Shown here piece after piece: positions 28,686 to 47,087 of a stretch of 64,000 bases of DNA. Numbering within the stretch: position 1 is the stretch's first letter; every line of letters starts with the position of its first letter. The notes below the pieces were generated by a model. The model did no database searches, had not been told where the DNA came from, and saw nothing but the letters and a program-made list of their open reading frames with translations. The stretch lies in NCBI GenBank assembly GCA_014687725.1, contig GCA_014687725.1_4094.1. One strand, given 5' to 3'. A program made the translations under genes and the position numbers. The stretch is from a phage.

Positions 28686-28713
28686 TTGCAAAGTATTGGG
28701 AAAGGTGTAGAAT
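28686..28713 (+). promoter_or_regulatory. early-type sigma70-like promoter (type 1)
   Basis: AGTACTTGCAA -35, 16-nt spacer, TAGAAT -10, then gTTTTACATcgag and 5' hairpin; this architecture recurs >20 times in 28.7-47 kb. Confidence 0.5.
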
Positions 28714-28770
28714 GTTTTACATCGAGACGGGGGATACGCTCCCGACTCACTTTTAAAAGAGATTAAAACG

Positions 28771-29133
28771 ATGGCGACTCAAATCAATACTATCATGCTT
28801 AACCTGGTTTCTTTCCGTGAAGAGATGAAAGATCTTCCCGCTGAGACTGTACGGATTCACATTGCAGCTTATCGGGAATTGATTGCAATGCTGCCGCTTA
28901 AGCGTGAACAGTACGCCGCTACTGCAATGCTGGACGCAATGATACATAAGATGATCCAGACTGATTTAACGATGGCTTATCAGTACATGGGCGAAATGTT
29001 TGCAGTGTATAGCAAGCCAGTACCAGGAATGGAAAGTACAGAAGTATTACACGGCTTAAACTTAAAACAAGATGCATGGGATAATATGCCTCGTTTCCTG
29101 GTATGGGCTGATAGTGGAAAGATTTACGAATAA
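28771..29133 (+). CDS. hypothetical early protein
   Basis: Own promoter and leader hairpin; ATG start. Confidence 0.6.
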   Translation: MATQINTIMLNLVSFREEMKDLPAETVRIHIAAYRELIAMLPLKREQYAATAMLDAMIHKMIQTDLTMAYQYMGEMFAVYSKPVPGMESTEVLHGLNLKQDAWDNMPRFLVWADSGKIYE

Positions 29134-29147
29134 GTTTTTAAAAGTAC

Positions 29148-29175
29148 TTGCAAAGTAAGTTTAAAGGCGTATAAT
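29148..29175 (+). promoter_or_regulatory. early-type promoter (type 1)
   Basis: TTGCAA, 16 nt, TATAAT. Confidence 0.5.
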
Positions 29176-29187
29176 ACTTTACATCAG

Positions 29188-29207
29188 GTGGGGAATAGTT
29201 CCCCACT
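29188..29207 (+). promoter_or_regulatory. conserved 5'-UTR stem-loop (example copy)
   Basis: GTGGGGA-atagt-TCCCCAC between -10 box and SD. Confidence 0.5.
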
Positions 29208-29226
29208 ATATAAGAGGATTAAAAAA

Positions 29227-29466
29227 ATGGCTAAATCAAAAATGTTCTTAGGTCACAAAAACAAAACTCAATGGAATGTAAGCCTTTGGATTAATAACGA
29301 CGAATCATTATACCGGTTGGCCCAGGACTTTATTGCCGCTAACACTAATCGTAATGATGCGGCCCGTCATATGATGCTATTTTTAGAACAGACTGGACAA
29401 GATAAAACACCGGACGGCTTTAAGTATAGCACTACTGCGATCCGTGCGGCGATGGTTGGAATGTAA
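29227..29466 (+). CDS. hypothetical early protein
   Basis: Track ORF starts at GTG inside the leader hairpin; ATG at 29227 follows AAGAGGA. Confidence 0.55.
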   Translation: MAKSKMFLGHKNKTQWNVSLWINNDESLYRLAQDFIAANTNRNDAARHMMLFLEQTGQDKTPDGFKYSTTAIRAAMVGM

Positions 29467-29548
29467 GAGAATAGATTAAAAGTACTATTGCACGGTGATA
29501 GTACTTTATAATAGATTTCTTTTATACAACAACGATAGGGGTAACAGC

Positions 29549-29815
29549 ATGAATATTATATACTTTGCAACGCGTGAACTTGCTCGGATTGCCGCACGCC
29601 AGGACGGGGCGACGTTTAAAGATATGGGCGTACAATCTGAACGTGGTAAACGTTGGGCCGTAGTAAAGCAAAGTACAGCCCGTTCAATTCAGTACTGGCT
29701 ATCTGCTTTAAAGCGTCCTGATAGTGTATCGCGTCGCGTGGTAGAAATAAAGCACGACCGCAAGGGCAACCGCGTTACTGTGTACAGTACTAAAAAGATT
29801 GCAGTACTTGAATAA
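29549..29815 (+). CDS. hypothetical early protein, paralog of 41865-42260
   Basis: Shared YATRE.ARI.AR..GA.FKDMG...RWAV and HDRKGNRVTVYS blocks. Confidence 0.55.
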   Translation: MNIIYFATRELARIAARQDGATFKDMGVQSERGKRWAVVKQSTARSIQYWLSALKRPDSVSRRVVEIKHDRKGNRVTVYSTKKIAVLE

Positions 29816-29901
29816 AAAGTACTTGCAAACTATGTTTAAGGGCGTATAATGTTTTACATCGAGAGCGGGAATAGTTCCCGCCTATAACCAGGAGTAATAA
29901 A

Positions 29902-30132
29902 ATGACCAATATGTATATGACTGAAGTTAAAACCGTAAAAGATACTACCACTAATAAAACTACTTACTTACAGCGGATCTGCGGTGTATGGCAACGTATC
30001 AGCAAATCAAAGTACTTTAAATTAACATCATATGCCAATCGTTCGGATTCATTCAGTACTGAAATAAAAGGTAATAAAGTACACCAATACGGCACTTATT
30101 ATTATTATAGCCTGGAGGCGATTGCAGTATAA
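29902..30132 (+). CDS. hypothetical early protein
   Basis: Promoter + GCGGGAA-tag-TTCCCGC leader hairpin + AGGAG. Confidence 0.55.
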   Translation: MTNMYMTEVKTVKDTTTNKTTYLQRICGVWQRISKSKYFKLTSYANRSDSFSTEIKGNKVHQYGTYYYYSLEAIAV

Positions 30133-30159
30133 GTAGTTTACAAATCTTTACAATTGCCA

Positions 30160-30350
30160 GTATTGACTTATTTTGTCAGTACTGGCATAATGTATTCATT
30201 GGCAGATAAGCCGTAGCCCATAGGGTGCGGGAGTGTATCTATAGAAAAATTAGTTTAGTATAGTTACAATTGTGCACCCGGTGGGTTAGCTGTTGTCATG
30301 GGGTATATTATGCCAGTACTTGATAATGCTGTCAATACTTTTTTTTAATA
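30160..30350 (+). repeat. structured repeat element with own promoter (candidate small RNA)
   Basis: TTGACT, 17 nt, CATAAT, then inverted arms CCCATAGGGTGC ... GCACCCGGTGGG and U-run; arms recur elsewhere. Confidence 0.35.
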
Positions 30351-30559
30351 TTCAGTACTGAAAACTATTTTTAAAAAGTACTTGCAAACTATGTTTAAAG
30401 GCGTATAATGTTTTACATCAGGACGGGGGACGAAATAAGTAACTTCCCGTTAAGTAGCCCAGGAGTAAGGCACACGAAAAACTCCCCTGATAAAATAGTT
30501 TGACAATTGTTTTTAAAAGCGTATAATACTTACATCAACTACTGAATGAGGGTTACAAA

Positions 30560-31171
30560 ATGAAAACTATCACTACTACTACTTTCGTTATGGATTTTTC
30601 TGAATTGAACGCAGAACAACAAACGTCAGCTATCGAACTGGTTCGGGAACGTGAAAAAAACTCAAACGACAATTATTTTTCTGAAAGTGAAATTGAATAC
30701 TATAAAGAAACAGTACTACCGGAATATGGCATTAATGACGCTGAAATACAATTCAGTGGTTTTTGGTCCCAGGGTGACGGTGCATCAATCAGTACTGACC
30801 ACGTTGACGCAGTGAAGTTTTTACGCAAGGTAAGAGCATTAACTAAGTATCGCTCAATCCGTCACCTGCTGAATGAAGATGATTTGGCGATGAGTGTAAA
30901 GCGTTCTCACTCCCACTACTCGCATGAGAATACTGTAAGCGGGTACATTGAATCGGCTTACACTGATTTAACCGCAAAACAAGAAACGTTAGTTAATGAG
31001 CTTGAGGAACTACTCACTGAAACTATTCGTGAATTGTCCCGCAAGTTGTACCGTGATTTAGAGAATGCATATGAGGATCAATTCACTACTGAAAACATTA
31101 CGGCACTGATTGAGGGTAACGAATATCAATTCAATGTTATTGATGGCGTAGTAGAATCAATCGAATATTAA
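30560..31171 (+). CDS. hypothetical early protein (203 aa)
   Basis: Tandem promoters with structured leader upstream; ATG after GAGGG. Confidence 0.6.
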   Translation: MKTITTTTFVMDFSELNAEQQTSAIELVREREKNSNDNYFSESEIEYYKETVLPEYGINDAEIQFSGFWSQGDGASISTDHVDAVKFLRKVRALTKYRSIRHLLNEDDLAMSVKRSHSHYSHENTVSGYIESAYTDLTAKQETLVNELEELLTETIRELSRKLYRDLENAYEDQFTTENITALIEGNEYQFNVIDGVVESIEY

Positions 31172-31264
31172 TTCAAAAAGTACTTGCAAACTAAGTTTAA
31201 AAGCGTATAATACTTTATATCGAGGCGGGGAATGGTTCCCCGCTCACACTAAAAGGGCAACAAA

Positions 31265-31537
31265 ATGAAAACTTTAAATATCACAACTGCACATCAATTG
31301 GTTCGGGATGCAATGGATCATGTGCAAGATTTCTTCCCTGATGTAAGTGTCGTAACTTATGAAAAAGGTACTTGGACTTATTCAACAATTAATGGTTATG
31401 AGCCTGATTTCGATGATCTGGAAGAAATGGAATTTAATTTTGATCTGCTGAATGATGCCGCCCGTGAAGTTGAAAACGATGTTCAATACATTGATGGTTC
31501 TGTCGCACCTGATGCAGTAAAAGAATTAAAAAACTAA
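31265..31537 (+). CDS. hypothetical acidic protein
   Basis: Promoter + leader hairpin + ATG. Confidence 0.55.
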   Translation: MKTLNITTAHQLVRDAMDHVQDFFPDVSVVTYEKGTWTYSTINGYEPDFDDLEEMEFNFDLLNDAAREVENDVQYIDGSVAPDAVKELKN

Positions 31538-31622
31538 AAAGTACTTGCATTGTAGTTAGATTAACGTATAATACTTTATATCGAGGCGGGGAATGGTTCC
31601 CGCCTTTACTGAGGGTTATCTA

Positions 31623-31883
31623 ATGAGCAAAGTAATTAACTATACAGTGTTAAGCAAGTCATTGTCTATTAGCCAATGTACTGATGGTTATTGGCTTTAT
31701 GATGAAACGCGTGGCATGAATTTAGCTATGCAGGAGAAAACTACTGATGCGGCATATCTTAAAGCACTGGAATACTACCAGAAGCGTTTAAAGGAAGTAG
31801 AAAACGATTATAATAACCTGAAAGCGAAAGTAGATAATTTCGTTGGTCAATTCATCGAGGAAGACGACGACATACAATATTGA
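31623..31883 (+). CDS. hypothetical early protein
   Basis: Start moved to ATG downstream of leader hairpin. Confidence 0.5.
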   Translation: MSKVINYTVLSKSLSISQCTDGYWLYDETRGMNLAMQEKTTDAAYLKALEYYQKRLKEVENDYNNLKAKVDNFVGQFIEEDDDIQY

Positions 31884-31968
31884 AAAAGTACTTGCAATTA
31901 GTTTTTAGTACTGTATAATGGTTTACATAGAGGGGGAAATGGTTCTCCCTGGTAATGAGGAAAATAAA

Positions 31969-32190
31969 ATGGCTAATATCACTACTCTTTCCCAACTGGA
32001 AGCACTGGTTAAATCTATGCGGGAACATGCCGACAAAATCGGCGTACAAGATCCAGCCGTTTGCTTCTGCGACGAATTGAATGATGATACCCTGGTAATA
32101 GCAGAAGTCCAGGACGTTTCTAACTATTCCTCGCGTTACACTGGCGGCGTAGCAAATAAAGGTGACTTCTGTTTATACCTTACAAAATAA
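31969..32190 (+). CDS. hypothetical early protein
   Basis: Start moved to MANITTL after AATGAGGAAAATAAA. Confidence 0.5.
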   Translation: MANITTLSQLEALVKSMREHADKIGVQDPAVCFCDELNDDTLVIAEVQDVSNYSSRYTGGVANKGDFCLYLTK

Positions 32191-32194
32191 CAAC

Positions 32195-32225
32195 GCGGGG
32201 AGATAATAACTCCCCGTTACTTTTT
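32195..32225 (+). terminator. intrinsic terminator
   Basis: GGGGAG-ataataa-CTCCCC then gttaCTTTTT. Confidence 0.5.
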
Positions 32226-32433
32226 CAGTACTGAATCATTTAATAGACGGATCTCGGCACCCGGTGGGTTAGTGACTGTTTCGTCTTGATGTAGTAATTA
32301 TGCCAGTACTGGATGCACTTGTCAACAACTATTTTTCAAATACTTTTTATTAAAATACTTGCAATTAGTTTTTAAACGCGTATAATGTTTTGCATAGGGG
32401 GAGCGGTTCCCCTGGTAACTAAGGAATAAGAAA

Positions 32434-32670
32434 ATGGTCGAACAAATCAAATCAACGTCTTCGAATGTAACGGGAACGGTAGCACACTTTACTAGTGATG
32501 AATCGCGGGGCGTTCCCTATTGTGCTGTACATGTAAACACTGAGGGTAACTACTGGTTTACGGTTTACGGATCATATTCATTTGGACGGCCAGGGCATCA
32601 AAAAATTCTGGATAAAGTACAACCAACGGGTAAAAATATCACTGCCGAAATGTTTTATAAAAAATCATAA
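32434..32670 (+). CDS. hypothetical early protein
   Basis: Promoter + hairpin + AAGGAATAAGAAAATG. Confidence 0.55.
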   Translation: MVEQIKSTSSNVTGTVAHFTSDESRGVPYCAVHVNTEGNYWFTVYGSYSFGRPGHQKILDKVQPTGKNITAEMFYKKS

Positions 32671-32754
32671 AGTACTTGATAATAGTTTTTAGTACTGTAT
32701 AATATTTTACATCGCAAGGGGGAGCGGTTCCCCCTGGTAACTAAGGATAATCAA

Positions 32755-33054
32755 ATGAAAATTGCAATCATCGCCCTGGCTTTATCTGTTTCCTCTTTCG
32801 CTGTTAATGCGTCATTAGATGTAAGTAGTGAAAAATTCATTCAGTGCACTGTTGCAATGACCGATGAAAGTACTGGCGAGATTGTTTTAAAGGATTTAGA
32901 GATCCAGCCAGAAGCATTTAAAAACGGGCCGTTCCATGAAGAAGACGAAAAAGGTAGCACGACAATTTATTACGATGCAAGTACTAAACGCGGTTCGGTC
33001 ACTGTTATGGATACTGAGAAAGTTACATTCACTGGCGTAATTAATTGTTTATAA
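32755..33054 (+). CDS. secreted/periplasmic small protein (predicted signal peptide)
   Basis: MKIAIIALALSVSSFAVNA/SLD: n-h-c regions with AxA-like cleavage site. Confidence 0.6.
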   Translation: MKIAIIALALSVSSFAVNASLDVSSEKFIQCTVAMTDESTGEIVLKDLEIQPEAFKNGPFHEEDEKGSTTIYYDASTKRGSVTVMDTEKVTFTGVINCL

Positions 33055-33071
33055 TATAGTACTGAATCACT

Positions 33072-33100
33072 AGCCCACTATAAGAAGTGGGCTTTTTTTA
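33072..33100 (+). terminator. intrinsic terminator
   Basis: AGCCCACT-ataagaa-GTGGGCT + TTTTTTT. Confidence 0.65.
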
Positions 33101-33292
33101 TTGTAGTATTGTAGTACTGGTATACTTTGAAAATAGTTTTAAAAAAGTAGTTGACATTACCAGGGAAAAGCGTAGAATGTATTACATCAAGACGGGGAAC
33201 ACTAAGTAGACCGCCAGTAAGTCGAATGAAAAACTGGACACGTCAAACAAACTTTGATAAACTAACTTAAACTTTAATTGAGGATTTATAAA

Positions 33293-33775
33293 ATGGCTAA
33301 TGTAAAATCATTTCTGAAAGCACTGATTTCTAACGATACTGTTATTGCTGCTGAATTGCTGGCTGACCTGGATAATGATACCATGAAAGCAGTACGCAAC
33401 AATTTTAACATTGCTTACAGTGAAGCGAAAGAACTACAAGCCAAAAAGGTAGCAGAACTGGAAGAACAGAAAAAAGCCCGTGAAGCAGAACTGCAAGCAA
33501 CAATAGAAAGTATTCAGGCGGCGGTGTCTGGTTTAGATCTGGAAGTGGTTATTGAAATGGCACATAAAGCCCTGGCGGTTAAGTACGGTGAAGATAAGCC
33601 GGAATCTAAGCCTAAAAAATGGATTCAAGAACGTGTTACGGTTGTCCTTGATAACGGGGAAGAACATTTGATTCCTGTACGCGGTAACTGCATTGCGGTA
33701 GTACTGGATGCAATCAAAGAAAGCGGTATGACTCGCGAGGAATGGATCGAAGCTCACCGCAAAGTTGAAGCATAA
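33293..33775 (+). CDS. hypothetical protein (160 aa), coiled-coil-like central region
   Basis: Start moved to MANVKSF after GAGGA; K/E/A-rich heptad-like stretch. Confidence 0.55.
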   Translation: MANVKSFLKALISNDTVIAAELLADLDNDTMKAVRNNFNIAYSEAKELQAKKVAELEEQKKAREAELQATIESIQAAVSGLDLEVVIEMAHKALAVKYGEDKPESKPKKWIQERVTVVLDNGEEHLIPVRGNCIAVVLDAIKESGMTREEWIEAHRKVEA

Positions 33776-33796
33776 CAATTAAAGTACTGAATCACT

Positions 33797-33823
33797 AGCC
33801 CACTGTATAAGTGGGCTTTTTTG
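33797..33823 (+). terminator. intrinsic terminator
   Basis: AGCCCACT-gtata-AGTGGGCT + TTTTTT. Confidence 0.65.
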
Positions 33824-34059
33824 TGTTTATCGTTTACCAGGCCACCAGCACCGCCTAGAATCGATTCTAACGCATTAAACTGATTATCTGATGCATCGCC
33901 CTAGCTGGTGGCGTTAAGGTCGTTAGAATGCGATTGAGGACGTTTAAAGTATTTTGCAAAAAGTAATAAAAAGTACTTGCACGATTAAGAGATTAGCGTA
34001 TAATGTTTTACATCGAGAGGGGGAAACGGTTCTCCTTCCAAATCAAAGGAATCAAAACA

Positions 34060-34287
34060 ATGGCTATCGTAATCGCTTATGTAACTGGTACTACTGGCAC
34101 TTCTTCTACTGTTGCTGTAATTACCAACAAGAAAGGTGCGGAATTACATTCTGCAATGGATACCTGGGCGGTAAATGAGTTCGGTCAGTGGGCAAGTGTA
34201 GCATATGTTGAAACCTATCAAGTGCCAACCATTAGCTTAACGGATCTCGGTGTAGATCGTATCCTTTGCCTGGATGAATTAAATTAA
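34060..34287 (+). CDS. hypothetical early protein
   Basis: Start moved to MAIVIAY downstream of leader hairpin. Confidence 0.5.
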   Translation: MAIVIAYVTGTTGTSSTVAVITNKKGAELHSAMDTWAVNEFGQWASVAYVETYQVPTISLTDLGVDRILCLDELN

Positions 34288-34373
34288 AAAAGTACTTGCA
34301 AAGTAAATCAGATAAAGTATAATACATTACATCAAGGGGAGAAATGGTTCTCCCTGATAATGAGGAAACTAAT

Positions 34374-34517
34374 ATGAAAACTTGTCAATGTGGTAAAAAA
34401 TCTATTACTGGTTTAAAGCGGGGCGTTGCTCTTTGCCAGTACCATTATAATTTACAAGTATGGGGTAAAGAATGGGCCGACCAGGTGGAAGCAGCAAAGA
34501 AAGCAAAAAGTAAGTAA
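34374..34517 (+). CDS. small Cys-containing protein (47 aa)
   Basis: Below track cutoff; full promoter-hairpin-SD-ATG context; CQCG...C.YH pattern. Confidence 0.4.
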   Translation: MKTCQCGKKSITGLKRGVALCQYHYNLQVWGKEWADQVEAAKKAKSK

Positions 34518-34536
34518 AATTATTATCACAGTACTA

Positions 34537-34565
34537 TTGACATAGATTGATAGTACTGGCATAAT
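34537..34565 (+). promoter_or_regulatory. early promoter (type 2, AGTACT-flanked)
   Basis: cAGTACTaTTGACA, 17 nt, gatAGTACTGG-CATAAT; no 5' hairpin; recurs at ~34820, ~37690, ~37970, ~38500, ~45410. Confidence 0.5.
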
Positions 34566-34598
34566 AGATTTTATCAAGACAACTAAGAGGAAACAATA

Positions 34599-34811
34599 AT
34601 GGCTATCATCACAAAAATCAAAGTAAACAAATCACTGGTTAAGCTGGAAGAAGTGAAAGAAGGTTATAAAGTATCGTGGTGCGGCATGTATCGGATTTTT
34701 ACAGATGTTGACGATGCAATCAATTACTACACTGACACGGTAAAAAACTTTGTTCGTGCTGATGTGGTTATGGCAGTGGCAACACACAAAGCATCGAAAG
34801 AAAGTAAGTAA
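34599..34811 (+). CDS. hypothetical early protein, paralog of 37763-37942
   Basis: Both start MAII.K; type-2 promoter upstream. Confidence 0.55.
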   Translation: MAIITKIKVNKSLVKLEEVKEGYKVSWCGMYRIFTDVDDAINYYTDTVKNFVRADVVMAVATHKASKESK

Positions 34812-34892
34812 AAATATTATCACAGTACTATTGACATAGTTTGATAGTACTGGCATAATAGATTTTATCAAGACAACTAAGAGGAAATTAAA

Positions 34893-35237
34893 ATGGCTAA
34901 TATCAACACTATCGCAAAACAAAATATCAACCTGTCTTCTGTTGAAGTTGTACATATTGCCGCTCGGCGTTGGTTCCAGGCTTCATATGGTAACACTTAT
35001 TTCTCTTTAAGTGTAGACGTAGAAATTGATGGTAATTTTATTGAAGTAGTAAACGTGCCGTTCCAATATGGATACGGGGATCACTTTGACACTGTAGCAA
35101 TGGAAGAATTTAGCAAGGTTATTAATATGGAAGATAAAGAGTTTTTACGCGGTTCTTATCTTTCCCGTTTTTGCCGTGACAATAATATCACTGTTTACAG
35201 TTCGGTAACTGATGTTAAACGCAAAAAAGATCTTTAA
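34893..35237 (+). CDS. hypothetical protein, paralog of 41446-41769
   Basis: Shared W...GNTY.S..V and F.YGYG and ITVY..V.DVKRKKD blocks. Confidence 0.6.
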   Translation: MANINTIAKQNINLSSVEVVHIAARRWFQASYGNTYFSLSVDVEIDGNFIEVVNVPFQYGYGDHFDTVAMEEFSKVINMEDKEFLRGSYLSRFCRDNNITVYSSVTDVKRKKDL

Positions 35238-35317
35238 TTAGCTTTACTTTATGCAGATACTTTGATATAGTGTCTGCATAGGGGAAAGAAATTAAATTAA
35301 CTTAAGAGGATAGTATA

Positions 35318-35587
35318 ATGAAAAATATCAGTACTTTAATTGATGCAGGTACACATGTTCGGCGGTCTATGGTTGCAACCAGTACTACAAAACAAGTAGC
35401 GAGCGGTTATCTTGTATTTGTGCACGATGGTAAACTCCTGGAACGTTCAATCAATTTTGATGTTAAAAACAATTGCCGTTTTATTATCTTTAAGCGTGAA
35501 CAATATAAAATTGATTTACCAGCGAAGCCCATAAGCGGGGCGTATAACGTCTATTCATTGTTTGAGCGTCAACCATACACCTATTAA
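35318..35587 (+). CDS. hypothetical early protein
   Basis: ATG after AAGAGGA. Confidence 0.5.
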   Translation: MKNISTLIDAGTHVRRSMVATSTTKQVASGYLVFVHDGKLLERSINFDVKNNCRFIIFKREQYKIDLPAKPISGAYNVYSLFERQPYTY

Positions 35588-35638
35588 TCAAAACATCGTT
35601 AGCGGTCGATTTAGGCCGCTTATATTGGGGATTATACC

Positions 35639-40341: not shown

Positions 40342-40487
40342 AAGAATTCTTATTCGAAGTAGTGTTTCAAGGTGTCGGTAGTAACCAACTGATTCGCTCA
40401 AGTGGTTACAATGTTAACCAGGCATGGAATAACATTAAACAAATGTACCCGAACGCTATCACCTATCGCAACCCGAAACAAGTTTAA
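40338..40487 (+). CDS. small protein (49 aa)
   Basis: Below track cutoff; followed by terminator/promoter hairpin. Confidence 0.4.
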   Translation: MKEFLFEVVFQGVGSNQLIRSSGYNVNQAWNNIKQMYPNAITYRNPKQV

Positions 40488-40501
40488 AAATAATTGAAAA
40501 A

Positions 40502-40534
40502 GGGATTGACTCCGGTCAGTCCCTTTGCTATTAT
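40502..40534 (+). promoter_or_regulatory. terminator/promoter element (copy 5)
   Basis: GGGATTGAC-TCCG-GTCAGTCCC, TTTG, TTGACT/17 nt/TATTAT. Confidence 0.55.
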
Positions 40535-40635
40535 ATACGCATAGAAACAAATCAGCCCACAGGGTGCATAAATGTATCTATTGTTTGCTGGTGGCTAGTA
40601 CTATCAAGTACTGAAAACTATTTTTAAAAAAGTAC

Positions 40636-40663
40636 TTGCATTGTACTTAGAATCAAGTATAAT
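40636..40663 (+). promoter_or_regulatory. early promoter P1 of tandem pair
   Basis: TTGCAT, 16 nt, TATAAT; upstream A/T-rich tract and TCAGTACTGA. Confidence 0.5.
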
Positions 40664-40751
40664 GTTTTACATCAGGACGGGGAACGAAACAAGTAACCCC
40701 GTTAAGTAGTCCAGGAGTAAGACATAAGAAAACCTCCCCTGATAAAATAGT

Positions 40752-40779
40752 TTGACAATAGAAAGTAAACGAGTATAAT
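40752..40779 (+). promoter_or_regulatory. early promoter P2 of tandem pair
   Basis: TTGACA, 16 nt, TATAAT; separated from P1 by a ~60-nt structured leader, duplicated at 30360-30560. Confidence 0.5.
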
Positions 40780-40812
40780 ACTTACATCAACCACTGATAA
40801 GGAAACATTAAA

Positions 40813-41088
40813 ATGCGGATTCTACTGACAGCTAACGAAATCGAACAAGTACTGACTACTAACCTGGAAGACTGGAAACGTGAAGCAGATATCCAGGCGG
40901 TTCAACGGCTTAACGATGAGTTAACGCCGGATGACTTAAGCAAGATTGTAGATCCTCAATTCTACGAAGATATCCACGACACCGCGTTAAGCGTCGAGGA
41001 TGTACTAGATAAGCACTACATTGATATTGATTTGCAGGTTTACGGTCGTAAAAACTTTATCACTATTCACGACATTTACAATAATTAA
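40813..41088 (+). CDS. hypothetical acidic protein
   Basis: ATG after AAGGAAACATTAAA. Confidence 0.55.
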   Translation: MRILLTANEIEQVLTTNLEDWKREADIQAVQRLNDELTPDDLSKIVDPQFYEDIHDTALSVEDVLDKHYIDIDLQVYGRKNFITIHDIYNN

Positions 41089-41174
41089 GTATTGACAAAG
41101 TATCTTAGTACTGTATAATAGTTTACATCGAGAGGGGGAATGGTTCCCCTCCTAACAAAGAGAGAGAAATAAAA

Positions 41175-41357
41175 ATGGCTAAATGCACTATCTGTAAGAA
41201 AGAAATCGTATTAGTTCCAAGTGCCCGTGAACGTGCCGCTCGGTTCGGTGGCAAACCGTCAGACTATACAAAAATGTTTACTGTCCATGCAGCTTGCCAG
41301 GTAGCAAAACGTTCACAAGAAAGCGTAGAATTAATGCGTAAACTTTCCAAAAAATAA
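41175..41357 (+). CDS. hypothetical small protein
   Basis: Promoter + hairpin + GAGAGAGAAATAAAAATG. Confidence 0.5.
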   Translation: MAKCTICKKEIVLVPSARERAARFGGKPSDYTKMFTVHAACQVAKRSQESVELMRKLSKK

Positions 41358-41445
41358 GTATTGACAAAGTATCTTAGTACTGTATAATAGTTTACATCAA
41401 GTGAGGGGAAACGGTTCCCCTCCTAACAAAGAGAGAGAAATAAAA

Positions 41446-41769
41446 ATGGCTATGATCCTTGCCCAGAAAGTAGAACTGAAAATTGTAACCTCCTTTGACA
41501 TTAAAGTTAATCGGTGGACTGATTCACACGGCAATACTTACCACTCTTGCTACGTGTCTGCGTTAATTGGTGATCGTTGGGAAGACCTGGGACATGAAAC
41601 CTTTACATACGGTTACGGCACACAAGGCGAATACACGGGCTTGGAGATCATTAAAGAAACCGTTATAGGTTTCAACCCGAAAGAAACAGTTATTCACCGC
41701 ATCGAGGAAGAGATCAACAAAGAAATAACAGTTCGATACTACGATGTAAAACGTAAGAAAGATATGTAA
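41446..41769 (+). CDS. hypothetical protein, paralog of 34893-35237
   Basis: Start moved to MAMILAQ; duplicated promoter/leader with 41175 gene. Confidence 0.55.
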   Translation: MAMILAQKVELKIVTSFDIKVNRWTDSHGNTYHSCYVSALIGDRWEDLGHETFTYGYGTQGEYTGLEIIKETVIGFNPKETVIHRIEEEINKEITVRYYDVKRKKDM

Positions 41770-41864
41770 TAGAATCCATTTAAAGTACTATTTGACATTG
41801 CCCAGATAGTACTTTATAATAGACTCTAACTTGTAGTACTAACTCAACTAATAGGATGTATACC

Positions 41865-42260
41865 ATGATTACTAAATTCTACGCTACCCGTGAAGCTGCC
41901 CGTATTGTTGCACGCGAGGAAGGAGCAGCATTTAAAGACATGGGCAAAGATGCACCGAAAGGCCAACGCTGGGCCGTACAGTTCAAAGAGATCTCTGATA
42001 TTGTGAATTCACCTGAGCCAGTACTAACAGCAGCAGAACTAAAACGAGCGGATTTACTGGCGTCAATACTTGATGCACAAGATGAGTTTATCGCTGATTC
42101 TGATATCAAAGTACAGACAAACCATACCGCTTGGACTCACGCGGATCACCTGGCAAACCTGAAGCGTCCAAGTGAACTGGTACGCAACCAGAAAGAGATC
42201 CGACACGACCGTAAGGGTAATCGTGTAACAGTATACAGTAAACGCCGCCAGGTTATCTAA
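41865..42260 (+). CDS. hypothetical protein, paralog of 29549-29815
   Basis: Start moved to second ATG (AGGA upstream). Confidence 0.55.
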   Translation: MITKFYATREAARIVAREEGAAFKDMGKDAPKGQRWAVQFKEISDIVNSPEPVLTAAELKRADLLASILDAQDEFIADSDIKVQTNHTAWTHADHLANLKRPSELVRNQKEIRHDRKGNRVTVYSKRRQVI

Positions 42261-42282
42261 TAACTTGCAGTACTAACAACAC

Positions 42283-42307
42283 GGCGGGATCAGTTCCCGC
42301 CTTTTTT
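42283..42307 (+). terminator. intrinsic terminator
   Basis: GGCGGGA-tcagt-TCCCGCC + TTTTTT. Confidence 0.65.
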
Positions 42308-42321
42308 ATAGGACAAACAAA

Positions 42322-42576
42322 ATGATTAAGGTTCAACTATATAAAGATAATATCTTGCGGGTACACTATAAAGCCCCTCAGAGAATCATCACAAAGGCCG
42401 TACAGCTTGCTAATGAGTTTATTAATGGTAACCTATTACCAAGGAAGTTAAGCAACGGAAAACTGCGTGTAATCGATGTAGACACTAACAACAGAATAGT
42501 AATTGAGAACACAGGAAAGATAAACCTATATGAACACCAACAATATAATAAGAAAATAAAACTAATATCACGTTGA
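42322..42576 (+). CDS. hypothetical protein
   Basis: ATG after GGACAAACAAA. Confidence 0.5.
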   Translation: MIKVQLYKDNILRVHYKAPQRIITKAVQLANEFINGNLLPRKLSNGKLRVIDVDTNNRIVIENTGKINLYEHQQYNKKIKLISR

Positions 42577-42629
42577 CAGTACTCAATTGTTTTAGTACTA
42601 TGTACATATACCAACACGGGAGAAACAAA

Positions 42630-42848
42630 ATGAAATTATCTAAAATCGAAAAGAAAACTATTGATGAAGCAGTTAAGCACGGTTATACCTTTCGTAATGA
42701 TTCACATTTTACCAATTTTCAACAAGGGTATCGTACTATTAAAAAACTCATTGACAAAGGTTTATTAGTTGAAGTCAATAACGGCAATGGTATTGAGTAT
42801 CAACCAACACAAGACGCATTTTATTTTAAGAAATATAATATTATCTAA
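42630..42848 (+). CDS. hypothetical protein, tandem duplicate pair member
   Basis: Promoter TTGACA/17/TACTAT and leader duplicated at 42849-42905. Confidence 0.5.
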   Translation: MKLSKIEKKTIDEAVKHGYTFRNDSHFTNFQQGYRTIKKLIDKGLLVEVNNGNGIEYQPTQDAFYFKKYNII

Positions 42849-42905
42849 TTGACAGTACTCAAATGTTTTAGTACTATATGTACATACCAACACGGGGAAA
42901 ACAAA

Positions 42906-43148
42906 ATGATTACTTTAGAAAAACGTATCAAAGAAACTACATCGCTGGTGGAACTGTTAACAGTACTGAAATGCCGTACTACTCGGTTTAGTACACCGGA
43001 CTTTATTAATATGGTTGATGTTAACGGTCGTTATCGCATTGCAGTAGAACAAGGAACAGCGAAAGTATTCAGTACTAAAAACACTAAGGAAGTGATTCAT
43101 GCTGTAAGTGTTAAAAAAGTAGTTGCCATTGATAGTAAAGTACTGTAA
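42906..43148 (+). CDS. hypothetical protein, tandem duplicate pair member
   Basis: Same promoter/leader as previous gene. Confidence 0.5.
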   Translation: MITLEKRIKETTSLVELLTVLKCRTTRFSTPDFINMVDVNGRYRIAVEQGTAKVFSTKNTKEVIHAVSVKKVVAIDSKVL

Positions 43149-43179
43149 GATAGTTTCATTAACTCAAGGAGAACATGCA

Positions 43180-43764
43180 ATGCGTAATTATACTAAATTC
43201 ATCCGTACCCTGTCAGAAATGGAAACCAACAAAGAGATCCTTTCAGCTTGTCGGTTAGCTGGTCTGGAGATCATCGGTGCGGGTTCTTCCCGTATTGTAT
43301 TCGCTTTAAATGATCGGTTAGTGATCAAGGTCGCGAATTGTGATGCGGGTGTAGAACAAAATGAAACTGAATGTAAGGTATGGAATTTTTTAGATTATGA
43401 CCGCCCTCAATTGAAACAGTACTTTGCAAAGGTGCATATGCATTTATGCGATCCTGATAATATGTTTATCGTTATGGATCGGTTGAGTACTGCAAGTAAA
43501 GGCAGTGTAAAGCACGTAAACGCGTGCAATGAATTAAAGTACAATATTAAACGTAATGCCATTGAACGCCAGCACCGCTTTGCTGATGCACTACAACACG
43601 TTGATGATACATTATCAACACTAACGATAAGAGATATCAGAAAACAGAATATCGGCCAGGATCGTAATGGCCTTATTAAAGTACTTGATTACGGTTTAAC
43701 CCGCAATATCTGGAATCAGTACTATAAAAAGCGTGATGTAGAAGCAAGTAAGGTAACACGATAA
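43180..43764 (+). CDS. protein-kinase-like protein (atypical Ser/Thr kinase fold)
   Basis: IIGAGSSRIVF (Gly-rich loop), LVIKV (beta3 Lys), RDIRKQNIG (catalytic loop), KVLDYG (DFG-like); AAGGAG SD. Confidence 0.55.
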   Translation: MRNYTKFIRTLSEMETNKEILSACRLAGLEIIGAGSSRIVFALNDRLVIKVANCDAGVEQNETECKVWNFLDYDRPQLKQYFAKVHMHLCDPDNMFIVMDRLSTASKGSVKHVNACNELKYNIKRNAIERQHRFADALQHVDDTLSTLTIRDIRKQNIGQDRNGLIKVLDYGLTRNIWNQYYKKRDVEASKVTR

Positions 43765-43777
43765 AAAAGATTAAAAA

Positions 43778-43812
43778 AGGGATTGACTCCGGTCAGTCCC
43801 TTTGCTATTATA
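43778..43812 (+). promoter_or_regulatory. terminator/promoter element (copy 6)
   Basis: GGGATTGACTCCGGTCAGTCCC + TTTGCTATTAT. Confidence 0.55.
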
Positions 43813-43984
43813 TATTCATTGAGAGATAACTCACTGACCCATAGGGTGCGGAAGTGTATCTATTATATAAGTATTCAGTACTGAAAACTATTTTAAAAAA
43901 GTACTTGCAATGTACTTAGAATCAAGTATAATGTTTTACATAGAGAGGGGGAAATGGTTCTCCCTGGTAATAAGGAATAAAATC

Positions 43985-44206
43985 ATGACTACAATGACTT
44001 GCATTTACGCTTCCAATCTTCTGAATGATGCGGCCTTTAATGTTGATTCAGAATATCAATGTTATCGGGATGAAAATAAAAAAGTTTTTGTAGTTGATAA
44101 TAATGGTTTCCATATTGAATTACAATCCGGTTTCACTGGTGTTGATGGTAAATCAGTGTGGGGCGTACAGGATGATAAAGGCACATATCATTTTAAACGT
44201 AATTAA
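43985..44206 (+). CDS. hypothetical early protein
   Basis: Start moved to MTTMTC downstream of leader hairpin. Confidence 0.5.
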   Translation: MTTMTCIYASNLLNDAAFNVDSEYQCYRDENKKVFVVDNNGFHIELQSGFTGVDGKSVWGVQDDKGTYHFKRN

Positions 44207-44290
44207 GTATTGACAAAGTATATCAGTACTGTATAATAGTTTACATCAAGGGGAGAATAGTTCTCCCCGATACTAAAAGGAAACAAAATT

Positions 44291-44563
44291 ATGTCCAGCT
44301 ACTCCGCTACTATGATCATTAAAGATATGAACGGTAATCCTACTTCTGCTGGTGGATCATTTGGAAACATTAATTTAGATGGTCGGTTATCCATGCAATC
44401 AGCCATCGATGCAGCGAAAGAAGTTTTTAAGAATGAATGTACTGTTAGTAAGCTGGATTATATGGGATTCGCTATCGAGAAAACTAATCGTTTTGTGAAC
44501 TACAAAAATCCACTGATGATTGATACTAACCTGAAAGCTAACGAAGTGGGGTACTTATTATGA
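44291..44563 (+). CDS. hypothetical early protein
   Basis: Promoter + hairpin + AAAGGAAACAAAATTATG. Confidence 0.55.
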   Translation: MSSYSATMIIKDMNGNPTSAGGSFGNINLDGRLSMQSAIDAAKEVFKNECTVSKLDYMGFAIEKTNRFVNYKNPLMIDTNLKANEVGYLL

Positions 44564-44751
44564 CAGTAGAAGAAGTTAAAAAAGTACTGGCAGTACTACG
44601 CTATCATAATCATTGCAAGGTGAAGAATGATCCTGATTATGTTGATTCATCCCTGGAGGAAGACACATTAAACGCAATAAGCCATATGCAAACATTAGCA
44701 AAGCGTATGACCGAAAAGAATAGACCGGACTATATCGGAAATAAAATTTAA
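44560..44751 (+). CDS. hypothetical early protein
   Basis: ATGA overlap with previous. Confidence 0.5.
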   Translation: MTVEEVKKVLAVLRYHNHCKVKNDPDYVDSSLEEDTLNAISHMQTLAKRMTEKNRPDYIGNKI

Positions 44752-44837
44752 AAAGTACTTGCATTGTAGTTAGATTAACGTATAATGTTTTACATAGAGC
44801 GGGGGAACTATTCCCCCGCCAGTCCAGGAGATACACC

Positions 44838-45101
44838 ATGAACACTATCGAAATCACTATCAATGCACACGTATACGACAACGTAGTACTGCAAACTACT
44901 ATGACCGCTAATGATACCAGTACTTTGCGGAATACTGTTATTAGTGCCGTATGTGCCGCTATCGGTGATGTCGCCCTGGAAAATGCAGAACACATCAACA
45001 ACGGTTTCACTATGTGCAAACGTGATAACGCAAAACATATCATCGTAGAAGGTTACGGCGGTGTAGAATATAATCTTTATATGAAAAAAGTACTTGCATA
45101 A
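44838..45101 (+). CDS. hypothetical early protein
   Basis: Promoter + GCGGGGGAA-cta-TTCCCCCGC hairpin + AGGAG. Confidence 0.55.
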   Translation: MNTIEITINAHVYDNVVLQTTMTANDTSTLRNTVISAVCAAIGDVALENAEHINNGFTMCKRDNAKHIIVEGYGGVEYNLYMKKVLA

Positions 45102-45168
45102 TAACTAAAACAAAGTATAATGTTTTGCATAGGGGGAGATATCCTCCCCCACTAAAAGGAGTAATAAA

Positions 45169-45393
45169 ATGGCTAACTTTGATGAACTGATGCGGGAAGT
45201 AGCTAACCTGGCAGAAGAGAAGAAATCATTCGATTCTATCTATAACACCGCTCACCGTGATTCAGTACTGGCATGTACTCAGGATCAAAAAGATGAACTA
45301 ATCGCCACATATCATGAAGCATGGAAGTACTACCGCCAATGGGAGAAAGAAGAAAGCGAGTCTACCATCAACGGCATCAATAATCTAATCTAA
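45169..45393 (+). CDS. hypothetical early protein
   Basis: Promoter + hairpin + AAAGGAGTAATAAAATG. Confidence 0.55.
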   Translation: MANFDELMREVANLAEEKKSFDSIYNTAHRDSVLACTQDQKDELIATYHEAWKYYRQWEKEESESTINGINNLI

Positions 45394-45469
45394 AAGTTTT
45401 ATTTCAGTACTATTGACATAGCTTGATAGTACTGATGTAATAACTTTACTAACTACAAGGGGAAACATA

Positions 45470-45727
45470 ATGGAACAGTTCACACAATATCGGGTAAATC
45501 CTCAAGCTATGGCCTACGTAGAAGACCATAAAACGTTACCAGTACTAACACCAATTAAAGGCCATATCTATCGTGCAATGTCATGGAATACGGCCCAGGA
45601 TGGATATACTACCGCTGGCGTGGGTATGTATTGCGGGAATGGTGAATGGTTTGATCCAAATAATCCGGTAGCCATTGACAGTACTGAAAAAATGAAATGG
45701 GCCGACTACATCGAAGATATTTCATAA
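45470..45727 (+). CDS. hypothetical early protein
   Basis: Type-2 promoter; ATG after AAGGGGAAACATA. Confidence 0.55.
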   Translation: MEQFTQYRVNPQAMAYVEDHKTLPVLTPIKGHIYRAMSWNTAQDGYTTAGVGMYCGNGEWFDPNNPVAIDSTEKMKWADYIEDIS

Positions 45728-45816
45728 AACTATTTGACAGTACTAACCAGTAATGTATAATGTTTTACATAGAGCGGGGGAATAGTTCTCCCGCCAATAG
45801 TTTGGAGTAAAACATT

Positions 45817-46017
45817 ATGTCTATCGCTATCGCCCTGGTTGAAGTACTGAAAGAAGCTAAAGCCAACCTTATCGATGTACAGATTAAGGAATTACAAAAT
45901 GGTTTAATCGGCTGTACTTGTACCGCTGGTGGAGCGGCAGACTATCGGGAATTCGAATCACTTGAATCGATGGTCCGTTATCTTACCATGATCGTAGAAG
46001 ATTGGAGAATCATCTAA
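45817..46017 (+). CDS. hypothetical early protein
   Basis: Promoter + hairpin + TGGAGTAAAACATTATG. Confidence 0.5.
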   Translation: MSIAIALVEVLKEAKANLIDVQIKELQNGLIGCTCTAGGAADYREFESLESMVRYLTMIVEDWRII

Positions 46018-46035
46018 CAAAAAAGAATAAAAAAA

Positions 46036-46069
46036 GGGATTGACTCCGGTCAGTCCCTTTGCTATTATA
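46036..46069 (+). promoter_or_regulatory. terminator/promoter element (copy 7)
   Basis: GGGATTGACTCCGGTCAGTCCC + TTTGCTATTAT. Confidence 0.55.
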
Positions 46070-46263
46070 TACGCATAGACAAAAACTAGCCCACTGGGTG
46101 CAGGAGTGTATCTAAAATATATAGTTAATAACGGTGAGTAACTATCTGCTGGTGGGGTGAAAACTATTAATAAAAAAAGTATTGACAAAGTATATCAGTA
46201 CTGCAATAATGTATCTCGTAGGGCGGCAATGGTGCGACGGCCCACAAAGTTAGGAGATTCAAA

Positions 46264-46596
46264 ATGAGTACTTCAATCGCTATCGTTAAAGCTTTCATCC
46301 GTACCAATGTTTCATCTGTATTCATCGACGGTCTGGATCGGGAAGTAGAATACTCAATCATTATCGCACAGACTGCAAACGGTGCTCGGTATATCCTTAA
46401 TGATAGTGAAGCAAATCACTACTACTTCACTAAAGCTACTGGCTTTAAACGCATCGATGCTGACGTAGTATACACTAAGATGAATAAGCTGGTAGACAAG
46501 ATTAACGCGAAAGGTACTATCGATTTACAGTACTGGACCGAAACCGATCCAGAATATGGATCTCACCGCTACCTGAATCCAGGTATTAAAATGTAA
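46264..46596 (+). CDS. hypothetical early protein
   Basis: ATG after TTAGGAGATTCAAA. Confidence 0.55.
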   Translation: MSTSIAIVKAFIRTNVSSVFIDGLDREVEYSIIIAQTANGARYILNDSEANHYYFTKATGFKRIDADVVYTKMNKLVDKINAKGTIDLQYWTETDPEYGSHRYLNPGIKM

Positions 46597-46685
46597 AAAG
46601 TACTTGCATAGTACTTAGAATCAAGTATAATGTTTTACATAGAGAGGGGGAAATGGTTCTCCCTCCTAAATTAAGGAGTTTTATC

Positions 46686-47087
46686 ATGACCTTCTCAATC
46701 AATTCCTTCGCTGACGTTTTAGTACTGGCTCGGACTTTCGGTAAAGATGCACTGGAGTACGCTGTAAGTAATGGTACTATCCAACCGGAACAGTGCCGCA
46801 TCATTGGAAACTGCAAACGTTGGGCGGTATCCAATACTATTGCACTGGAAAACTTCCACGATGGCAACAATGAATATTCTGTTGATGTAGTATTCGAAGC
46901 CGTTGATCTCGGCGGTATCTATAATACTAACCTGAATGATGTGCGTATCGTTCGCACGGGGTTCGGTGCTTATGATGTATCTATTCGTGAAGCTATGAAC
47001 ACCGGATACATTAGCAAGGACTTACTTGCTCACATCATGCAGCTGTGTACGGAACGTAACGAAGCACGCACTATCTTAGGACTGTAA
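46686..47087 (+). CDS. hypothetical early protein
   Basis: Start moved to MTFSINS after AAGGAG. Confidence 0.55.
   Translation: MTFSINSFADVLVLARTFGKDALEYAVSNGTIQPEQCRIIGNCKRWAVSNTIALENFHDGNNEYSVDVVFEAVDLGGIYNTNLNDVRIVRTGFGAYDVSIREAMNTGYISKDLLAHIMQLCTERNEARTILGL

Follow-up and report, generated by a model that had tools for sequence, protein, structure and literature searches.

Introduction

The 64,000-nucleotide (nt) stretch of phage DNA analyzed here (assembly GCA_014687725.1, contig GCA_014687725.1_4094.1; hereafter the window) carries a short G-rich/C-rich stem-loop between the promoter and the ribosome-binding site (RBS) of many early genes, which raises the question of what this element is and what it does for the phage. 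A preliminary description of the sequence had reported it for more than 20 early genes. We found 24 promoter-hairpin-Shine-Dalgarno (SD) cassettes at positions 28,686-46,686, all on the plus strand, with a regular-expression scan, a hairpin enumerator, and single-sequence folding in agreement. The hairpin is real and is maintained as a structure. It forms part of a dispersed repeat of about 105 bp, present in 24 copies in 18 kb, each ahead of an unrelated small early open reading frame (ORF). The cassette represents a variant of the promoter-early stem-loop (PeSL) cassettes known from T4-like phages (PMC2839356, PMC4122927), not an element of a new kind; it differs from them in the position of the stem-loop and in the phage group that carries it, and its leader hairpin is of a familiar type. 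The preliminary description had missed the PeSL-type repeat to which the hairpin belongs, as well as its confinement to the terminal-repeat early region, its sharing with other phage families, and its coincidence with recombination junctions.

Anatomy of the cassettes

Each cassette begins with an A-rich tract ending in AGTAC, followed by a -35 element (TTGCAA, TTGCAT, or TTGACA), a spacer of 16-17 nt, and TATAAT. Five to 6 nt after TATAAT stands a conserved TACAT and, another 2-4 nt on, the stem-loop, with a stem of 7-10 bp (5′ arm G-rich, 3′ arm C/U-rich) and a loop of 3-5 nt; 7-9 nt after the stem come a purine-rich SD and the ATG. The promoters are sigma-70-like, with an AT-rich upstream tract (AAAAAGTAC) before the -35 element and 12/12 positions matched at 11 sites in the region. 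The predicted stability of the stem-loops ranges between -11 and -18 kcal/mol.

Motif counts were far above expectation for GGGRANNNTYCCC (6 occurrences versus 0.04 expected), for GGGGRAN{3,5}TYCCCC (11 matches in 9 distinct hairpins versus 0), and for TATAATNNTTWNMAT (20 versus 0.57), and G/C-rich hairpins of at least 7 bp numbered 57 on the plus strand versus a shuffle mean of 7.4. These four counts exclude a chance origin of the cassettes. The example stems named in the preliminary description lie at 29187-29207, 31224-31244, 36157-36176, 37421-37440, and 44799-44819. Its consensus, GGGGRA-N3-5-TYCCCC, is thus enriched above chance, but the literal form fits just 9/24 hairpins; stems outside it include GGGGAGAA/TTCTCCCC, AGGGGGAA/TTCTCCCT, GCGGGAA/TTCCCGC, and similar ones. 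The loops, which had been given as usually aatggtt, aacggtt, or aatagtt, proved more varied in sequence and length (TAG, ATGG, TGG, ATGA, ACATC, ACAAC, CGG, and others).

Cassettes are 72% identical to one another (up to 91%), and the 110 nt on either flank are at background similarity. A covariance model of 53 positions built from the 24 copies had 80 matches in the window and seven related loci, all on the coding strand, and none of those in the window fell outside 28,708-46,679.

Two features of the hairpins touch on annotation. Their loops often hold an ATG (ATGG, TGG after A, or ATGA; for instance, at 31593, 31939, 36165, and 37429), so that mechanical ORF callers begin several genes inside the hairpin, 30 nt 5′ of the SD-preceded ATG. 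A functional start at the loop AUG was rejected, since its frame is inconsistent, its SD spacing would be 2 nt, and the stem sequesters it. In the GenBank record of phage vB_EcoM_G17, the orthologue of hairpin 31583-31606 is annotated from ARNold as a "putative transcriptional terminator" (2966-2985 of the locus); it is preceded by a -10 hexamer and followed by the SD of the downstream gene.

Selection for pairing of the stem

Arms made of a G run and a C run can slip against each other, which makes a +1 slide control nearly as good as the true register. We therefore relied on alignment-free tests, i.e., per-instance folding, chimera permutation, and orthologue comparison. Covariation over the covariance-model alignment did exceed 500 shuffles on every measure, but the slide control was almost equal to it.

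The mean stem score of the real 5′ and 3′ halves was 20.2, versus 16.1 for chimeras (z = 14), and 0/2000 permutations reached the observed value. Among 62 distinct arm pairs, GC, AU, UA, and CG all occur at the same stem position, as in GCGGGG/CCCCGC, GAGGGG/CCCCTC, GTGGGG/CCCCAC, GGGGAGAA/TTCTCCCC, and GGGGCGGA/TTCGCCCC, and RNAalifold independently predicts the helix, with double-sided changes in 6/6 pairs. The compensatory changes already noticed in the preliminary description are present, accompanied by G.U changes on the sense strand, with a T.T in hairpin 39812-39831 as the exception. Internal non-Watson-Crick positions under equal penalties were G.T in 16 cases versus A.C or C.A in 5, an excess that points to pairing being kept on the sense strand.

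Comparison of the window cassettes with their orthologues in 121Q and EC22.5-2, both Asteriusvirus-type jumbo phages, gave substitution levels of 17.6% in the loops and 3-4% in the arms; the start region and linker were at about 8%, the coding sequence at 4.7%, and the -10 hexamer at 1%. The stem is thus constrained and the loop is free. As judged from these patterns of variation, the comparisons show that selection for pairing on the sense strand keeps the stem. Stem positions with several pair types and divergent loops are also what characterizes the sequence-independent structure of 5′ stabilizers. The free variation of the loops relative to the arms disfavors the proposal, made in the preliminary description, of a site for a specific RNA-binding regulator. 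The cassettes and the related features are as follows (plus strand marked +).

Cassette 1, 28686..28770, +: -35 at 28686, -10 TAGAAT at 28708, hairpin 28728-28744 CGGGGGatacgCTCCCG, ATG at 28771; atypical long linker
Cassette 2, 29148..29226, +: -10 at 29170, hairpin 29187-29207 GGTGGGGAAtagTTCCCCACT, ATG at 29227
Cassette 3, 29823..29901, +: -10 at 29845, hairpin 29865-29881 GCGGGAAtagTTCCCGC, ATG at 29902
Cassette 4, 31184..31264, +: -10 at 31206, hairpin 31224-31244 GGCGGGGAAtggTTCCCCGCT, ATG at 31265
Cassette 5, 31545..31622, +: -10 at 31567, hairpin 31583-31606 GAGGCGGGGAatggTTCCCGCCTT, ATG at 31623
Cassette 6, 31892..31968, +: -10 at 31914, hairpin 31931-31950 AGGGGGAAatggTTCTCCCT with an internal G.U, ATG at 31969
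Cassette 7, 32359..32433, +: -10 at 32381, hairpin 32395-32414 TAGGGGGAgcggTTCCCCTG, ATG at 32434; 5′ tail of just 1-3 nt
Cassette 8, 32676..32754, +: -10 at 32698, hairpin 32717-32735 AGGGGGAGcggTTCCCCCT, ATG at 32755
Cassette 9, 33977..34059, +: -10 at 33999, hairpin 34017-34038 GAGGGGGAAacggTTCTCCTTC with two G.U, ATG at 34060; cassette and gene also in phage W70
Cassette 10, 34296..34373, +: -10 at 34318, hairpin 34336-34355 GGGGAGAAatggTTCTCCCT, ATG at 34374; cassette and gene also in W70
Cassette 11, 36117..36195, +: -10 at 36139, hairpin 36157-36176 GGGGAGAAatgaTTCTCCCC, ATG at 36196
Cassette 12, 36346..36423, +: -10 at 36368, hairpin 36386-36405 GGGGAGAAatagTTCTCCCC, ATG at 36424
Cassette 13, 36946..37024, +: -10 at 36968, hairpin 36987-37005 AGGGGAAAcggTTTCCCCT, ATG at 37025
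Cassette 14, 37381..37458, +: -10 at 37403, hairpin 37421-37440 GGGGAGAAatgaTTCTCCCC, ATG at 37459
Cassette 15, 39501..39575, +: -35 TTGCAT at 39501, -10 TATAGT at 39524, hairpin 39540-39558 AGGGGAAacatcTTCCCCT, ATG at 39576
Cassette 16, 39772..39848, +: -10 at 39794, hairpin 39812-39831 GGGGTGAAatgaTTCTCCCC, ATG at 39849; T.T mismatch, A-U in orthologues
Cassette 17, 41092..41174, +: -10 at 41114, hairpin 41132-41151 GAGGGGGAatggTTCCCCTC, ATG at 41175
Cassette 18, 41361..41445, +: -10 at 41383, hairpin 41403-41422 GAGGGGAAacggTTCCCCTC, ATG at 41446
Cassette 19, 43905..43984, +: -10 at 43927, hairpin 43946-43965 AGGGGGAAatggTTCTCCCT, ATG at 43985
Cassette 20, 44210..44290, +: -10 at 44232, hairpin 44250-44268 GGGGAGAAtagTTCTCCCC, ATG at 44291
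Cassette 21, 44759..44837, +: -10 at 44781, hairpin 44799-44819 GCGGGGGAActaTTCCCCCGC, ATG at 44838
Cassette 22, 45094..45168, +: -10 at 45116, hairpin 45132-45150 GGGGGAGatatcCTCCCCC, ATG at 45169; 5′ tail of 3 nt
Cassette 23, 45734..45816, +: -10 at 45756, hairpin 45774-45794 GCGGGGGAAtagTTCTCCCGC with an internal G.U, ATG at 45817
Cassette 24, 46604..46685, +: -10 at 46626, hairpin 46644-46665 GAGGGGGAAatggTTCTCCCTC, ATG at 46686
Orphan half-sites (loop and 3′ arm) ATAGTTCCCC, at 27969, 28601, and 28633, within 27969..28642, +: in the non-coding hub near the genome terminus
Terminal-repeat-equivalent region, 27043..47520: every hairpin cassette lies inside; end coordinate extrapolated

Position of the hairpin in the leader

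From the general behavior of sigma-70 promoters, we took as transcription start the A of the conserved CAT, which lies 8 nt past the -10 hexamer and is preceded by a pyrimidine. With this predicted start, the hairpin lies 3′ of the start, as the preliminary description had supposed. The stem-loop begins 10-13 nt past the -10 hexamer and is 17-22 nt long, in a leader of about 44 nt. In the window, the predicted 5′ tail before the stem has a mode of 5 nt (range, 1-7) and the distance from hairpin to ATG is 17-23 nt. The mode of the tail is likewise 5 nt in 121Q and TH47, and it is 3 nt in the Salmonella, Klebsiella, and Erwinia jumbo phages 7t3, fENko-Kae01, and Hallingskeid; across the window and these five phages, the hairpin-to-ATG distance is 16-24 nt. 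Minimum-energy folds of the whole leader consist of exactly the hairpin, with SD and AUG unpaired. The hairpin should thus be 5′-proximal in the mRNA, given the predicted start.

A second class of leader, TATAAT-ACTTACATCAA...SD, is about 25 nt long, lacks the hairpin, and follows many promoters of equal strength. The promoters with a hairpin are 23/38 in the window, 19/32 in 121Q, 9/25 in 7t3, 8/22 in fENko-Kae01, 6/11 in Hallingskeid, and 1/14 in Yersinia phage fHe-Yen9-03. TACAT is thus part of the promoter, to which the hairpin is added as a leader module.

Genome context and recombination junctions

A 5-kb query from the region is 88-96% identical to 121Q, PBECO4, G17, A4, EC22.5-2, and other Asteriusvirus-type jumbo phages. 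The related phage fEgEco12 has experimentally determined physical ends and a direct terminal repeat of 20,993 bp (PMC13070987). Its positions 1-2492 align to window 27043-29514 and its positions 19800-22164 to window 46324-48691, so that the 28.7-46.7 kb interval is essentially the direct terminal repeat; the same stretch is annotated as direct terminal repeats in related records. Genes 3′ of about 47.5 kb are tightly packed and without cassette-type promoters. As a terminal-repeat region, the array would enter the cell first.

7t3, fENko-Kae01, and Hallingskeid carry the same cassettes, and so do rV5-like phages. Collinear alignments of the window with 121Q and TH47 break at cassettes: of their 66 ends, 26% coincide with the upstream edge of a cassette and 18% with the hairpin (3.6% expected each), i.e., 44% together versus 7% expected, and the promoter core holds 3% versus 4.8% expected. 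In W70, an rV5-like phage (Vequintavirinae, 137 kb), a 3-kb stretch is a mosaic of window modules in changed order (window segments 33998-34513, 34534-34872, 29212-29466, 31585-31850, 37444-37781, and 30359-30538). Several of its junctions lie at or just past the hairpin, and the same cassettes stand ahead of the same genes.

More generally, rV5-like phages (about 140 kb; W70 locus 1055-2936, LTH01) have at least six early-gene modules in common with the window, at 70-88% nucleotide identity and in another order. Records labeled "Campylobacter phage" (146 kb) also match the promoter and may be mislabeled rV5-like phages. In EC22.5-2, an unverified assembly, many window segments match two places 1-3 kb apart with differing identities, which suggests that its early region is mixed or mis-assembled. 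A promoter-anchored scan of IMG/VR with GTATAATNNTTTACAT returned at least 120 loci, mostly single chance matches; it was too unspecific and was not used.

Our literature search on these phages found no publication mentioning the element. The Sharanji and fEgEco12 genome papers mention neither promoters nor hairpins, and the rV5 and CBB papers list promoters without leader hairpins. A search for "PeSL" returned, amid unrelated acronyms, phage use only in the original studies (PMC2839356, PMC4122927).

Known elements set aside

Several familiar structures were considered for the hairpin and rejected. An intrinsic terminator would have a U-tract directly after the hairpin, and the hairpins have only 1-4 T in the 8 nt after the stem, i.e., no U-tract. 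A lambda-type nut site (boxA/boxB) does not fit, because loops vary in length (3-5 nt) and sequence, no conserved boxA-like motif was found, and Rfam gave no match. The stems are far too short for an RNase III site, and the loops lack the GGA of a CsrA site. An obstacle to RNase E scanning was set aside because bypass of simple stem-loops has been reported (PMC9943677). A scan of 26-50 kb against Rfam 15 (E ≤ 1) found no relevant family and only a sub-threshold Trp_leader at 33760-33824, in a terminator region.

Possible roles of the hairpin

The reading that we lean toward, while rating it at somewhat less than an even chance, is that of a PeSL-like cassette with a leader hairpin that influences the fate of the mRNA and at the same time serves as a recombination junction. 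Host RNA polymerase would start at the A of TACAT, and the hairpin would take up about +6 to +25 of the leader. Single-stranded RNA would then be limited to about 5 nt at the 5′ end (in the Salmonella, Klebsiella, and Erwinia relatives, about 3 nt) and to the 7-9 nt that lead up to the RBS. Such a compact leader may limit the access of RppH and RNase E, leading to longer-lived early mRNAs, and by folding on itself it would keep SD and AUG unpaired whatever ORF follows. The conserved cassette, and notably its hairpin, would also provide homology for swapping promoter and gene modules within the lineage and with other coliphage lineages. The double spacing constraint, on the 5′ end and on the RBS, is what a compact self-contained leader fits best. 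In E. coli, mRNA decay is dominated by the first four nt, the amount of single-stranded 5′ untranslated region (5′-UTR), and the translation rate (PMC11541907). This, the existence of classical 5′-terminal stabilizers, and the closely similar hairpin at the start of the T7 phi10 transcript speak for the reading. Among the three functions suggested in the preliminary description (5′ stabilizer, binding site for a regulator, and processing site), the stabilizer fits the anatomy best, but about 5 unpaired nt are predicted before the stem.

A number of points weigh against this reading. About 40% of the equally strong promoters in the window are hairpin-less, so the hairpin is dispensable for expression. 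Our literature search found no transcription-start or RNA-seq data for 121Q/PBECO4-like phages, and the start used here is predicted from the -10 hexamer. Classical 5′ stabilizers are said, after Emory, Bouvet, and Belasco in 1992, to tolerate just about 2-4 unpaired nt; the predicted 5-nt tail (range 1-7) exceeds that tolerance, which weakens the case for a stabilizer. A large 5′-UTR screen found little effect of hairpin height on decay (PMC11541907), and RNase E reportedly steps past simple stem-loops orthogonal to its path (PMC9943677). Regarding selection, paralogues and orthologues are related by descent and the permutation statistics are therefore inflated, and the G.T bias fits single-stranded DNA of the same strand equally well and cannot distinguish it from RNA. 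Breakpoints in intergenic cassettes could also be left by purifying selection alone.

The original view of PeSLs offers an alternative, that of an attenuator or insulator against read-through: polymerases coming from upstream would pause or terminate at the G/C hairpin, so that each gene's level is set by its own promoter and downstream promoters escape occlusion. Most genes here are separated by a cassette alone, so read-through must occur; an RB49 PeSL stem-loop placed between promoter and lacZ cut expression about as much as rrnB T1 (PMC2839356), and in the G17 record one orthologous hairpin carries an ARNold terminator call. However, the RB49 stem-loop lies between -35 and -10, so this experiment is not directly transferable. 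A terminator scan flagged, among the 24 leader hairpins, just the atypical hairpin 28728-28744 of cassette 1, and found separate U-tract terminators at 32195, 33072, 33797, and 42283. The stems thus lack a U-tract while the phage uses canonical U-tract terminators at 33072, 33797, and 42283. Hairpin cassettes also stand directly 3′ of true terminators (33797 then 33977; 43776 then 43905), and the hairpin is fixed relative to its own -10 and ATG instead of lying anywhere in the spacer. Attenuation is, in our view, unlikely.

The hairpin could also be a site for a trans-acting factor common to the whole early regulon, namely, an RNA-binding protein of phage or host, an N/boxB-type antiterminator, a shut-off endonuclease, or a small RNA. 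Consistent with such a factor, different genera share both the polarity of the arms (G first, C second) and the GAA...TTC at the top of the stem, the genes marked by the element form a temporally coherent set within the terminal repeat, and G/C-rich candidate small RNAs lie nearby. A common factor is difficult to reconcile, however, with loops whose sequence and length vary freely even among orthologues, with stem sequences that differ among copies, and with the many early genes that lack the element; neither a boxA-like partner motif nor an Rfam match was seen. We consider a trans-acting factor improbable.

Alternatively, the inverted repeat may matter as DNA only: in single-stranded or supercoiled DNA it would form a hairpin or cruciform at which crossover or template switching of a mobile cassette takes place, and it would have no function in the mRNA. 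The roughly 5-fold enrichment of breakpoints at the hairpin, the mapping of RB49 mini-circle crossovers to the PeSL loop (PMC2839356), and the exchange of gene modules with rV5-like phages all agree with this, and G.T pairs are tolerated in DNA hairpins too. Recombination, however, needs neither a fixed distance to SD and ATG nor placement in the transcribed leader; the RB49 repeat lies in the promoter spacer, which argues that position is free when only DNA matters, and the sense-strand G.U bias is most simply an RNA effect. We give an exclusively DNA-level function little credence.

It is less likely still that the hairpin tags the first-injected early regulon for a dedicated phage function, be it a stem-specific RNA-binding protein or nuclease that switches the whole set off or on or a structure-specific DNA enzyme that drives exchange. 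If the version with a DNA enzyme were true, the cassettes would be a recombination system common to Asteriusvirus-like jumbo phages and rV5-like phages. Finally, a double-stranded operator at +5 to +25, at which a dimeric repressor would shut off the early promoters, is very improbable: the palindrome does overlap the start region and orphan half-sites ATAGTTCCCC lie 5′ of the first promoter, but the half-sites differ in their spacing (3-5 nt) and in sequence, with changes in one arm compensated in the other, and, owing to the G.T/A.C asymmetry, only one strand shows a broken palindrome.

Other elements of the window

The non-coding hub at 27043-28700 (about 1.6 kb) lies at the equivalent of the left genome terminus and has divergent minus-strand promoters at 28409 and 28192, as well as two copies of the repeat GAAAGATAGTTCCCCT. 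The half-sites that the preliminary description had placed in the hub are indeed there (ATAGTTCCCC at 27969, 28601, and 28633; 5 in the window versus 0.06 expected) and are conserved in relatives. A promoter-less hairpin is found at 27985-28003. Together with the orphan half-sites, it may be a degraded remnant of cassettes.

The hexamer AGTACT occurs 252 times in the whole window versus 21 expected, a 12-fold excess, in both coding and non-coding DNA (e.g., 28681, 29143, 31907, and 34552). It adjoins the -35 element of cassettes (AAAAAGTACTTGCAA) and often the -10 element (tAGTACTGTATAAT), and it forms stems of late-gene terminators (GCCAGTACnnnGTACTGGC, 9465-21296).

Besides the cassettes, composite terminator/promoter elements with the pattern AAAGGG(A)TTGAC-tycg-GTCAG(Y)CCCTTT-GC-TATWAT carry the -35 element inside a terminator-like stem whose T-run leads into the -10 element (896-925, 2180-2205, 3900-3927, 36806-36833, 40499-40526, 43776-43803, and 46033-46060); these composites have the classical geometry of RB49 PeSLs. 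The motif CCCAYNGGGTGC (then ...AGTGTATCT) occurs 10 times versus 0.02 expected, at 30217, 36868, 38550, 40556, 43838, and 46090 on the plus strand and at 28125, 28341, 30274, and 32257 on the minus strand. It lies 30-45 nt 3′ of terminator/promoter composites, without an ORF, and may mark small RNAs or structured leaders.

A third promoter class, cAGTACTATTGACA-N6-TGATAGTACTGgCATAAT, has a 12-bp stem around the -35 element and spacer and an extended -10 element (TGnCATAAT), and is found at 34537-34565, 34831-34859, and 37691-37719 and also at 30155-30187 and 38493-38521. Two paralogous long leaders (30417-30500 and 40671-40752) have a predicted 5′ end, AUCAGG, that pairs with CCUGAU about 70 nt on, around an ACGGGG...CCCGU hairpin; a second consensus promoter follows each directly (30500 and 40752), with no ORF between.

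Significance

For a specialist in phage transcription, the element is unsurprising; it is real, widespread, and useful for annotation. The 53-position covariance model can annotate early transcription units in these poorly annotated genomes, where at least one such hairpin is now mislabeled as a terminator, and the cassettes could serve as compact promoter, leader, and RBS parts for expression in E. coli. If the reading that we favor is true, promoter/stem-loop cassettes would be a general device of large virulent coliphages, beyond the T4-like ones, with the stem-loop shifted, in the present case, into the transcribed leader and with the cassettes gathered in the terminal repeat. They would also account for the turnover of early ORFans, hundreds of which would be expressed at once and swapped between unrelated phage families.

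Relation to known systems

The leader of T7 gene 10 (phi10, used in pET vectors) resembles the leaders described here. The stem of its hairpin GGGAGACCacaacGGUUUCCC is 8 bp long, G-rich in the 5′ arm and C/U-rich in the 3′ arm, and contains G.U pairs; the ACAAC loop is identical to loops of 7t3, fENko-Kae01, and Hallingskeid, and an A/U-rich linker, SD, and AUG follow. This hairpin reportedly stabilizes the mRNA, in work by Mertens and colleagues from 1996. Unlike the window hairpins, that of T7 stands at the very start (+1) of a transcript made by T7 RNA polymerase, is that of a late gene, and is not a dispersed repeat. According to works cited in PMC3997798, 5′-terminal stem-loops are classical mRNA stabilizers. 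Those of ompA (hp1) and papA are likewise sequence-independent 5′ hairpins followed by an RBS, in which the stem matters and the loop does not; they have 0-4 unpaired nt, whereas tails of about 5 nt are predicted here and, in the Salmonella, Klebsiella, and Erwinia relatives, of about 3 nt. Lambdoid morons (promoter-gene-terminator) are similar in being single accessory genes with their own expression signals, but no conserved repeats flank them, and the exchange is not attributed to their flanks (PMC2839356).

The closest relatives are the PeSLs, G(n)-loop-C(n) stem-loops with sigma-70 promoters and SD that mediate shuffling and whose crossovers were mapped in the loop; the stem-loop positions form five classes within or around the promoter, the last one "just before the start site" (PMC2839356, PMC4122927). 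In the RB49 sequence, which we read directly, the stem-loop GGGGATC...GATCCCC lies between -35 and -10; placed there or around the promoter, the RB49 stem-loop has been interpreted as a terminator of upstream transcription. The window cassettes do not have it within or around the promoter: it stands uniformly 3′ of the predicted start, fixed to the -10 element and ATG, in its own mRNA leader and without a U-tract. They also differ in belonging to an Asteriusvirus-type jumbo phage and not to the Straboviridae, and in the confinement of the array to the direct terminal repeat; blastn detected no similarity to RB49. What the window cassettes have in common with the PeSLs of RB49/phi1, PST/T4, and nt-1/KVP40 is the intergenic length of about 100 bp, the AT-rich tract, the near-consensus sigma-70 promoter, the poly-G/loop/poly-C sequence, the SD, and the start codon, and the start-region motif CATCAAGACGA is found in both RB49 PeSLs and some window promoters. 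In both, many near-identical copies stand ahead of unrelated small ORFans in a hyperplastic early region, and related phages differ by indels or replacements whose junctions lie within cassettes and whose crossovers lie at the stem-loop. The window thus has the promoter, the adjacent stem-loop, the SD and small ORF in a hyperplastic repeat, and the cassette-bounded indels and replacements by which PeSLs are recognized.

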